Origin: Halobacteriaceae archaeon
Lineage (GTDB): Archaea; Halobacteriota; Halobacteria; Halobacteriales; Halobacteriaceae
Direction: 5' to 3'
Length of the DNA stretch: 20,345 nucleotides
NCBI GenBank assembly: GCA_042216675.1
Contig: JBDGTS010000027.1
Span: forward strand, 5,087 to 25,431
Below the pieces are notes generated by a model, which saw nothing but the letters and a program-made list of their open reading frames with translations, was not told where the DNA came from and did no database searches. How positions within the stretch are numbered: position 1 is the first letter of the stretch; each line of letters begins with the position of its first letter. The translations under genes were made by a program, and so were the position numbers. Positions 5,700 to 6,263 of this stretch are shown here, in pieces.

Positions 5700-6263
5700 T
5701 TACGACAGAGTCACCGTCTGGTCGAGAAGTTGCTTGTCGCTTTCAGTATGGACCATTTGGATTATGTAGTCCGTATTATCGCTGAAGACCTGAGTGGAAT
5801 TCCCATCACTAATCGTGATGAGTGAACCGGTCGAAAAGGTGCTGGCGGAACCAATTGCAGTCCCGTCAACCGTCGCAGAGACGTCAACACTGCTACCAGC
5901 ACCATTCGTCCAACCACTACCGGAAGTCCAACGTGCTACAATACTGTTGTCGCTTGCCGAGCGCACCGTAATCTGAAGTTTGCTCACTTCGATTGAATCT
6001 CCTTGATTATGGGAGATGTCAAAGGCGGCAACAGCGCTAGTCCCGGTCGTGGGGTCCGTATAATCGGTCGGGTTATCGGATACCGAAATACTGGCCGTTG
6101 GTCCCGAATTCCCTACGTTCTGACCGAGCCCTAGCACGAAGGTCCCGATAACGGCGGCAAGAATTACCGTTATCGCAACCATAAGTATCACACCGATGAC
6201 AGGTGAGACGCCCGTCTTGTCCTCGACGAAAGTCGTGAATCGCTCTTTGAGTTGGTCTAACAT
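5700..6263 (-). CDS. pilA: Archaeal type IV pilin (PilA-like, DUF1628/Pilin_N family)
   Basis: Class III signal peptide with the haloarchaeal pilin H-domain [30 protein letters not shown], a later HNQGDSI motif and a Ser/Thr-rich beta domain. Start is ATG 6263 (GTG 6290 is an alternative). Confidence 0.92.

Follow-up and report, generated by a model that had tools for sequence, protein, structure and literature searches.

Does the pilin gene found in this haloarchaeal provirus encode a functional subunit of type IV pili, and what would such a gene do for a virus devoid of pilus assembly genes? The gene is located in a window of 20,345 nucleotides (the whole stretch of DNA that was analyzed; contig C30, positions 5087-25431) from a metagenome-assembled genome of a member of the Halobacteriaceae that is 80% complete. 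In the numbering of the contig, the pilin gene occupies C30:10786-11349. The features of the window are the following (window coordinates and strand).

92-1237 (-): NTPase (PHROG 1979, E 1.7e-127; 51% to Harhisp1, HHPV3, and HHPV4)
1234-2055 (-): conserved pleolipovirus gene (PHROG 3526; 39% to SNJ2 ORF15)
2048-2722 (-): conserved pleolipovirus gene (PHROG 1938)
2815-4905 (-): spike protein of the VP4 type, 696 residues, with a C-terminal membrane anchor (PHROG 2231, E 2e-74)
5122-5538 (-): internal membrane protein of the VP3/VP1 type (PHROG 3232, E 1.3e-27; tblastn matches to HHPV4 VP9 and HHPV3 VP1)
5677-5681 (-): T5 run, candidate archaeal terminator, read from the sequence, 19 nt past the pilin stop codon
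5700-6263 (-): provirus-borne archaeal type IV pilin, 187 residues (Pilin_N match, solved pilus subunits, AF2 model)
6264-6488 (no strand): divergent intergenic region between the pilin gene and the ORF9-like gene, holding a 13-nt inverted repeat
6489-7346 (+): SNJ2-ORF9-like protein, 285 residues (PHROG 14115; modeled as N-terminal helices and a double LAGLIDADG-type fold)
7349-7831 (-): winged-helix regulator of the repressor type, similar to SNJ2 ORF4 (Pfam, PHROG, and collinearity with SNJ2)
8104-8289 (+): small ORF preceding the integrase gene
8293-8538 (+): small ORF (DUF7389) preceding the integrase gene
8535-9548 (+): SNJ2-type tyrosine integrase (45% to Int-SNJ2; for the layout, compare PMC5861418)
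9594-9607 (+): attR core CCCCGCGAGTCCAT, 14 bp, corresponding to the 3' end of tRNA-Ala, 45 bp past the integrase stop codon

The minus-strand ORF extending from 5700 to 6290 contains an ATG codon at 6263, from which a pilin of 187 residues is translated. Residues 18-104 matched Pilin_N (PF07790) with 75.4 bits (E 6.6e-21), the Pfam cut-off for this family being 25.2 bits. The protein consists of an 18-residue leader, a hydrophobic assembly helix, and a β-sandwich domain, with a single N-X-S/T sequon at N155. The leader is charged, the residue at position -1 is small, and the hydrophobic helix is unbroken, which predicts a class III signal peptide cleaved before V19. Sequence comparison with solved structures retrieved the pilus subunit of Haloferax volcanii (8fj5_A, E 1.1e-15, query residues 9-153) and the two SNJ2 pilins PilA2 (8gi2_A, E 3.5e-9) and PilA1 (9myg_A, E 1.4e-7). 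In the printed alignment, the 29-residue H-domain is letter for letter that of 8fj5. An AF2 model built with 60 homologues (pLDDT 90.2) comprised a helix spanning residues 21-50 followed by a β-sandwich of nine strands. In a Foldseek search of solved structures, this model was again closest to 8fj5_A (E 2.2e-6); archaella and the two SNJ2 pili ranked next, and the TM-scores were modest (TMt 0.49). All 24 invariant columns of a 60-sequence pilin alignment, in which the query is itself one of the rows, were conserved. The protein therefore combines the family match, the class III signal peptide, and the N-terminal helix followed by a β-rich domain that characterize archaeal type IV pilins. The first-pass annotation had described a complete pilin with an H-domain of the H. 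volcanii PilA type, and both parts of this description stood. The PilA adhesion pilins of H. volcanii, including PilA2 (8fj5), differ in being encoded by chromosomal host genes, and the outer domain of the provirus pilin is longer and diverged from that of 8fj5 (33% identity in the Foldseek alignment).

The element harboring this gene is a temperate SNJ2-like betapleolipovirus provirus of about 14.5 kb integrated in tRNA-Ala. On the flanks of the pilin gene, the NTPase, spike, and VP3-type proteins match pleolipovirus PHROGs at the E-values listed above. The element is collinear with SNJ2 (NC_074646.1), with which it shares the integrase (45%), ORF4-like, ORF9-like, and ORF15-like (39%) proteins, the NTPase (36%), and ORF18-like and ORF19-like proteins. 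The left part of the contig, inside the element, encodes a DUF7845 protein (E 1.4e-104), a family described as the Rep-Arvir rolling-circle initiators and defined on SNJ2 ORF19 (PMC13107129). The structural module is closer to that of Harhisp1, HHPV3, and HHPV4 (about 51% for the NTPase) than to that of SNJ2, HRPV-3 (41.5%) being intermediate for the NTPase. The winged-helix ORF probably has an internal start codon, since its matches are confined to residues 52-159. Two accessory ORFs are present in the left part of the contig. The first, C30:404-769 (+), encodes a small, secreted-looking protein in which a bacterial TSP3-type repeat was matched at E 7.7e-5, short of the Pfam cut-off; the second, C30:1079-1795 (+), encodes 238 residues with no family match.

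To locate the borders of the element, we considered the layout described for SNJ2-type integrases, in which a short core derived from the 3' end of a tRNA gene is located about 48 bp past the integrase gene (PMC5861418). The attR core CCCCGCGAGTCCAT has an identical second copy at C30:1-14, 5086 bases to the left of the window. The provirus therefore spans C30:1 to window position 9607. The gene for tRNA-Ala(CGC) was found at a matching distance from the RNase R gene in three of the seven loci of relatives that were examined. In relative G018, the DNA present to the right of the core directly trails the tRNA gene, indicating that the window is host DNA from position 9608 onward. The RNase R protein encoded there shows 74-80% identity to homologues from many haloarchaeal families and thus does not assign the host to any one of them. 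To the left of the window, the assembly contains a gap of 100 N flanked by identical 55-mers (C30:4932-5141 region, including window positions 1-55). Contigs from two runs bridge this gap, and the gap and one 55-bp duplicate are thus assembly artefacts, giving a real length of 14,524 bp for the provirus.

Direct sequence evidence for excision or circularization was provided by Logan contigs from two samples of one study, which report the presence of the forms and not their proportions. A 2754-nt contig from the second sample (X2) joins positions 14376-14679 of L004 to positions 1-2450 of L004 with 14 letters shared, and is a circular (or tandem) junction of the provirus. Since this contig joins both ends of the provirus, the pilin gene belongs to the excising unit. 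The integrated form was represented by a 925-nt contig from X1, the possible source sample, that crosses attR into the host flank. The first-pass annotation had left attL to be found and had held that a pilin located outside the excising unit would speak against its proposal; both 14-bp cores were recovered (C30:1-14 and window 9594-9607), and the pilin gene lies well inside the 14,524 bp. An X2 contig covering the pilin region (10505-12014) showed one change, at 11964, outside the pilin gene. The provirus gives direct sequence evidence that the unit circularizes in nature.

Several candidates were discarded in the course of this analysis. The sequence TGACCATGACCC, present at C30:303 and 14641, was dropped as an att site since the tRNA-derived core was confirmed by the circular junction. 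Scans of the window and of C30:1-15000 for tRNA genes and Rfam families gave no matches; the body of the target tRNA-Ala lies beyond the start of the contig and is absent from the 80% complete assembly. The tRNA-Ala(cgc) called by ARAGORN on contig C9 was rejected as a false call (83 nt, 83% GC). A tRNA-Ala whose two parts lie at the end of C35 and at the start of C41 was rejected as the target, its anticodon being GGC and its core being one base off. On the host side of attR, a structured element of about 130 nt follows the 3' end of tRNA-Ala (window 9607-9740, plus strand; MFE -73.3 kcal/mol, z -3.4). It has a copy after the second core copy of the host, that of tRNA-Ala(GGC) (G000:C41:136-207), is present at as many as four sites of related genomes, and has no Rfam match. 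A small host ORF, 9990-10172 (-), located between the att site and the RNase R gene, encodes 60 residues with CPxCG-type cysteine pairs, and its DNA is not conserved in relatives.

In the provirus, the pilin gene is co-oriented with the structural operon and located just upstream from it, as had been noted at the outset: the VP3-like gene is on the same strand, 161 bp downstream. This position, directly upstream of structural genes, might suggest that the pilin is a component of the virion, anchored in the envelope and assisting attachment, rather than a pilus subunit. The betapleolipovirus Tebi-PV1 offers a parallel, since its pilin-like protein VP6, which is reported to be expressed, was detected in virus preparations (PMC13612827); the likeness to our pilin is drawn from the published description, not from the sequence of VP6. 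The same preparation also contained host pilins and archaellins, which co-purified with the virus (PMC13612827). In addition, the T5 run and the 161-bp spacer separate the pilin gene from the VP3-like gene, and the four isolates closest by NTPase make virions with no Pilin_N gene (0/4). Finally, the pilins PilA1 and PilA2 are reported to be dispensable for the life cycle of SNJ2 (PMC12426801). A role as virion component is therefore very unlikely. The T5 run located 19 nt after the stop codon indicates that the pilin gene probably forms its own transcription unit, separate from the structural operon. Upstream from the gene, the divergent intergenic region contains a 13-nt inverted repeat, ACAGTTTAACCCC / GGGGTCAAACTGT, at positions 6317-6329 and 6338-6350 (92% complementary, 8-nt spacer), i.e. 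55-88 nt upstream from the pilin start codon. This repeat is a candidate operator.

The closest experimental precedent is SNJ2, the provirus of Natrinema sp. J7. The slot occupied by the pilin gene, between the ORF9-like gene and the VP12/VP3-like genes, is the ORF10a/10b slot of SNJ2, which carries two pilin genes (gp10 and an unannotated ORF at 6072-6569). According to Xiang et al. (2025, PMC12426801), the SNJ2 pilins build pili via host PilB2 and PilC2, are not required by SNJ2 itself, boost biofilm formation and motility, and form pili that SNJ1, a co-resident virus, uses as its receptor. Both pilins polymerize alone, and 18 N-terminal residues are missing from the cryo-EM maps of both (PMC12426801). 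Prior to induction, transcription was reported for orf10 alone among the SNJ2 genes (Chen et al., 2023, PMC10123103). Our provirus resembles SNJ2 in several respects. Its pilin shares with PilA1 and PilA2 (PDB 9myg and 8gi2) the Pilin_N domain, the 18-residue leader, and the slot; both elements are devoid of pilB and pilC; the nearest relative of the pilins is a host chromosomal pilin in both cases; and both have an SNJ2-type integrase gene followed by an att core after about 45-48 bp. They differ by the number of pilin genes (one versus a tandem pair), the integration target (tRNA-Ala versus tRNA-Met), and the length of the element (14.5 kb versus 17.0 kb). The BLASTP alignment of the provirus pilin with the SNJ2 pilins is limited to residues 2-53, the outer domains being unrelated in sequence. 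The function is therefore transferred by family and slot rather than on the basis of close homology.

Candidates for the host machinery that such a pilin would require are encoded elsewhere in the genome. Neither T2SSE nor T2SSF was detected on the provirus or on C30, all six T2SSE and all six T2SSF matches of the genome being on other contigs, in agreement with the initial report that pilB and pilC are missing from the window. Adjacent T2SSE-T2SSF pairs were present on contigs C37 and C41, a T2SSF gene followed by weak pilin-like matches was present on C3, and a single A24 prepilin peptidase gene was detected.

Together, these data lead us to consider it likely that a functional type IV pilin is encoded here, by an accessory (moron) gene of a temperate SNJ2-like betapleolipovirus integrated in tRNA-Ala. 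A dedicated promoter would drive the pilin gene during repression of the other provirus genes. The host prepilin peptidase of the PibD type would remove the 18-residue leader before V19, and a host PilB/PilC pair would polymerize the mature protein via its conserved hydrophobic helix. The diverged outer β-sandwich would provide the pili of the lysogen with a new surface. The expected outcome would be lysogenic conversion of adhesion, biofilm formation, or motility, together with a modified receptor landscape for other viruses. The first-pass annotation had proposed lysogenic conversion through the host pilus machinery, with exclusion of pilus-binding viruses as a potential benefit. The former proposal remains the best reading, based on homology and on the SNJ2 experiments; the latter is opposite to the behavior of SNJ2, whose pili serve as a receptor. 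The novelty that it implied for a virus-borne pilin did not survive, since pilins have been reported in 16 of 51 SNJ2-like proviruses, with several captures from hosts and two to four copies in most of the pilin-bearing proviruses (PMC12426801), and VP6 of Tebi-PV1 has been published as well (PMC13612827). The provirus carries a new member of the virus-borne pilins for which hijack of the host pilus machinery was shown in SNJ2: the pilin gene is part of the excising unit, in the same slot, with no assembly genes. As an independent capture, it is distinguished by its outer domain, its tRNA target, and a structural module like that of HHPV3 and Harhisp1. More generally, virus pilins that capture the host pilus machinery alter the adhesion and movement of archaea of salt lakes and the way in which other viruses perceive them.

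The origin of the pilin was investigated by comparison with a database of 5.8 billion proteins. The best non-self match was a pilin encoded by the chromosome of the same host, the remaining matches being at 51% identity or less:

G000:C23:28884-29435 (-): host chromosomal pilin paralogue, 52% identity to the provirus pilin

The tree against host pilins that the first-pass annotation had suggested placed the two proteins as sisters (quick maximum-likelihood tree; SH-aLRT 93, below the mark of 95). This tree comprised 61 rows, the top matches P0002-P0060 and the two SNJ2 pilins, the latter having been chosen as the outgroup. The closest relatives of the provirus pilin are thus host chromosomal pilins. 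The two proteins differ at 8 of the first 60 residues and both end with DQTVTLS. The C23 gene differs by its housekeeping-gene surroundings (IMP dehydrogenase, DUF502, TrkA-DHH), which include no ORF9-like neighbor, and by its GC3 (0.74 versus 0.56). Over the first 60 codons, the two genes have 23 codons in common and differ at 29 by synonymous and at 8 by non-synonymous changes. The large excess of synonymous differences indicates purifying selection, and the extent of the synonymous divergence (29 of 60 codons) indicates that the provirus gene did not arise by recent copying of the C23 gene.

These comparisons bear on two other explanations. The pilin could be a decoy or poison subunit that engages PibD, PilB, and PilC to block or cap host pili, thereby conferring superinfection exclusion but building no filaments itself. 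Bacterial prophages are known to interfere with type IV pili, which was raised as a possibility for archaea in the discussion of PMC12426801, and the outer domain is much diverged from that of the C23 paralogue (52% identity overall; 8 non-synonymous differences among the first 60 codons). The conservation of the 24 invariant columns and the reported capacity of both SNJ2 homologues to polymerize alone (PMC12426801) argue against such a role, which we regard as very unlikely. Alternatively, the gene could be a decaying passenger devoid of present function, as might be thought from a codon usage unlike that of both virus and host. The frame is open, synonymous differences far exceed non-synonymous differences in the conserved part, the gene is unchanged between the two samples, and pilin genes fill the matching slot in 63 of 69 related loci (below), all of which makes decay highly improbable. 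A functional pilin thus remains the preferred explanation.

The search for pilin genes at the same slot of other proviruses, also called for by the first-pass annotation, covered isolate records and genomic loci carrying the ORF9-like gene. Among five betapleolipovirus isolate records, Pilin_N was detected only in SNJ2 (1/5), which was also the only one of these isolates with the ORF9-like gene. A tblastn search of 50,697 phage records with the pilin matched only two SNJ2 records, and an IMG/VR scan with the NTPase as the single query gave 10 pattern matches, none of which was confirmed. The ORF9-like gene was matched in 118 of the 401 genomes sampled from the order. In all of the 29 best non-self loci, which are the top scorers to the query, it was accompanied by one to three pilin ORFs. 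Of 40 further loci, picked manually at decreasing levels of similarity to the query, 34 likewise had pilin ORFs and six had none within 3 kb. In total, the linkage held in 63 of 69 loci (L114-L142 and L143-L202), which are related to one another and do not form an independent sample. The two genes were divergent in 52 of the 63 loci and on the same strand in 11. The 20-kb contexts were analyzed for 20 of the 29 best loci: pleolipovirus core genes were present in 12, and none was recognized with our queries in the remaining eight. Among the 12 pleolipovirus contexts, the side facing the VP3-like gene was that of the pilin in eight cases and that of the ORF9-like gene in four. No shared palindrome emerged from the 41 of 71 loci for which the ORF9-pilin intergenic region could be extracted, and about half of these 41 regions lacked an inverted repeat of at least 9 nt. 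The repeat at 6317-6350 therefore stays a local feature.

The AF2 model of the ORF9-like protein (pLDDT 93.3, pTM 0.90) contains a double α-β-β-α-β-β-α fold. It matched monomeric LAGLIDADG homing endonucleases and WhiA in Foldseek searches (E 6.7e-6 to 1.6e-3), and the ESM Atlas agreed on the fold (TM 0.58-0.78 in the structure rows). The fold is shared with I-Tsp061I (2dch), I-DmoI, intein endonucleases (7qss), and WhiA (3hyi and 3hyj). Sequence searches were negative: no Pfam family, including the LAGLIDADG models, was matched at E ≤ 0.01, and the best hit of a profile search of PDB sequences had an E-value of 0.66. Based on the model, the ORF9-like neighbor is assigned to a LAGLIDADG-fold/HTH protein. 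It differs from the LAGLIDADG enzymes and WhiA by an additional N-terminal helical part and by the absence of acidic residues at the presumed catalytic sites. Specifically, position 113 was G, S, or T and position 212 was R in all 26 aligned members. These are the positions that we take to correspond to the catalytic acids, the motifs being placed tentatively from helices 97-112 and 198-212 of the model.

A virus-encoded regulator has already been speculated upon by the authors of the SNJ2 study, who called the dominance of the viral pilins "mysterious" (PMC12426801). With its linkage to pilin genes in 63 of 69 loci, the ORF9-like neighbor is a concrete candidate for this regulator and a more useful lead than the pilin itself. 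We tentatively propose, as a possibility that we do not favor over its alternatives, that the two genes form a mobile cassette in which the ORF9-like protein, combining an HTH with a catalytically dead WhiA-type LAGLIDADG scaffold, drives lysogenic pilin expression or spread of the cassette. The cassette would move as a unit, in either orientation, between pleolipoviruses and other integrated elements. In lysogeny, the ORF9-like protein would act as a DNA-binding factor from the shared intergenic region. If the protein does drive expression of the pilin, this would explain how viral pilins outcompete chromosomal ones. Published SNJ2 data bear on this proposal. Transcription of orf9 was reported to be very low, and a frameshift in orf9 left derepression of PInt unaffected (PMC10123103). 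In experiments with an SNJ2 ORF4-11 fragment, SNJ1 plaquing was reported to be abolished by the ORF10a knock-out only (PMC12426801), indicating that ORF9 is not essential for pilin function in that setting. The term "ORF9" is absent from the main text of the latter article. Our literature search found no paper mentioning pleolipoviruses and LAGLIDADG together, and pilins, LAGLIDADG, and haloarchaea were co-mentioned only in the context of the S-layer glycoprotein. The ORF9-pilin linkage and the LAGLIDADG/HTH identity of the neighbor may be new results.

Codon composition sets the pilin genes apart from their surroundings. The first-pass annotation had noted that the pilin gene is more AT-rich than its neighbors, and the values agree: GC was 0.514 and GC3 0.559 for the pilin gene, versus a GC3 of 0.66-0.89 for eight other provirus genes. 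GC3 was 0.91 for the host RNase R gene, and the overall GC content of the host genome is 68.8%. The SNJ2 pilin genes (L001 5587-6569) are likewise low, with GC3 values of 0.48 and 0.42 versus 0.55-0.84 in other SNJ2 genes. Of the 63 linked loci, 60 had a lower GC3 in the cassette pilin gene than in its ORF9-like neighbor (medians of 0.51 and 0.73, respectively). This low GC3 of the cassette pilin genes may also be a new observation. If the two genes do form a cassette, their AT-shifted codon usage would mark it apart from both virus and host. In the host chromosome, the C23 pilin paralogue is also located in a low-GC islet, of 1 kb (GC 0.57-0.60 versus 0.69), beside a tRNA-Lys gene.
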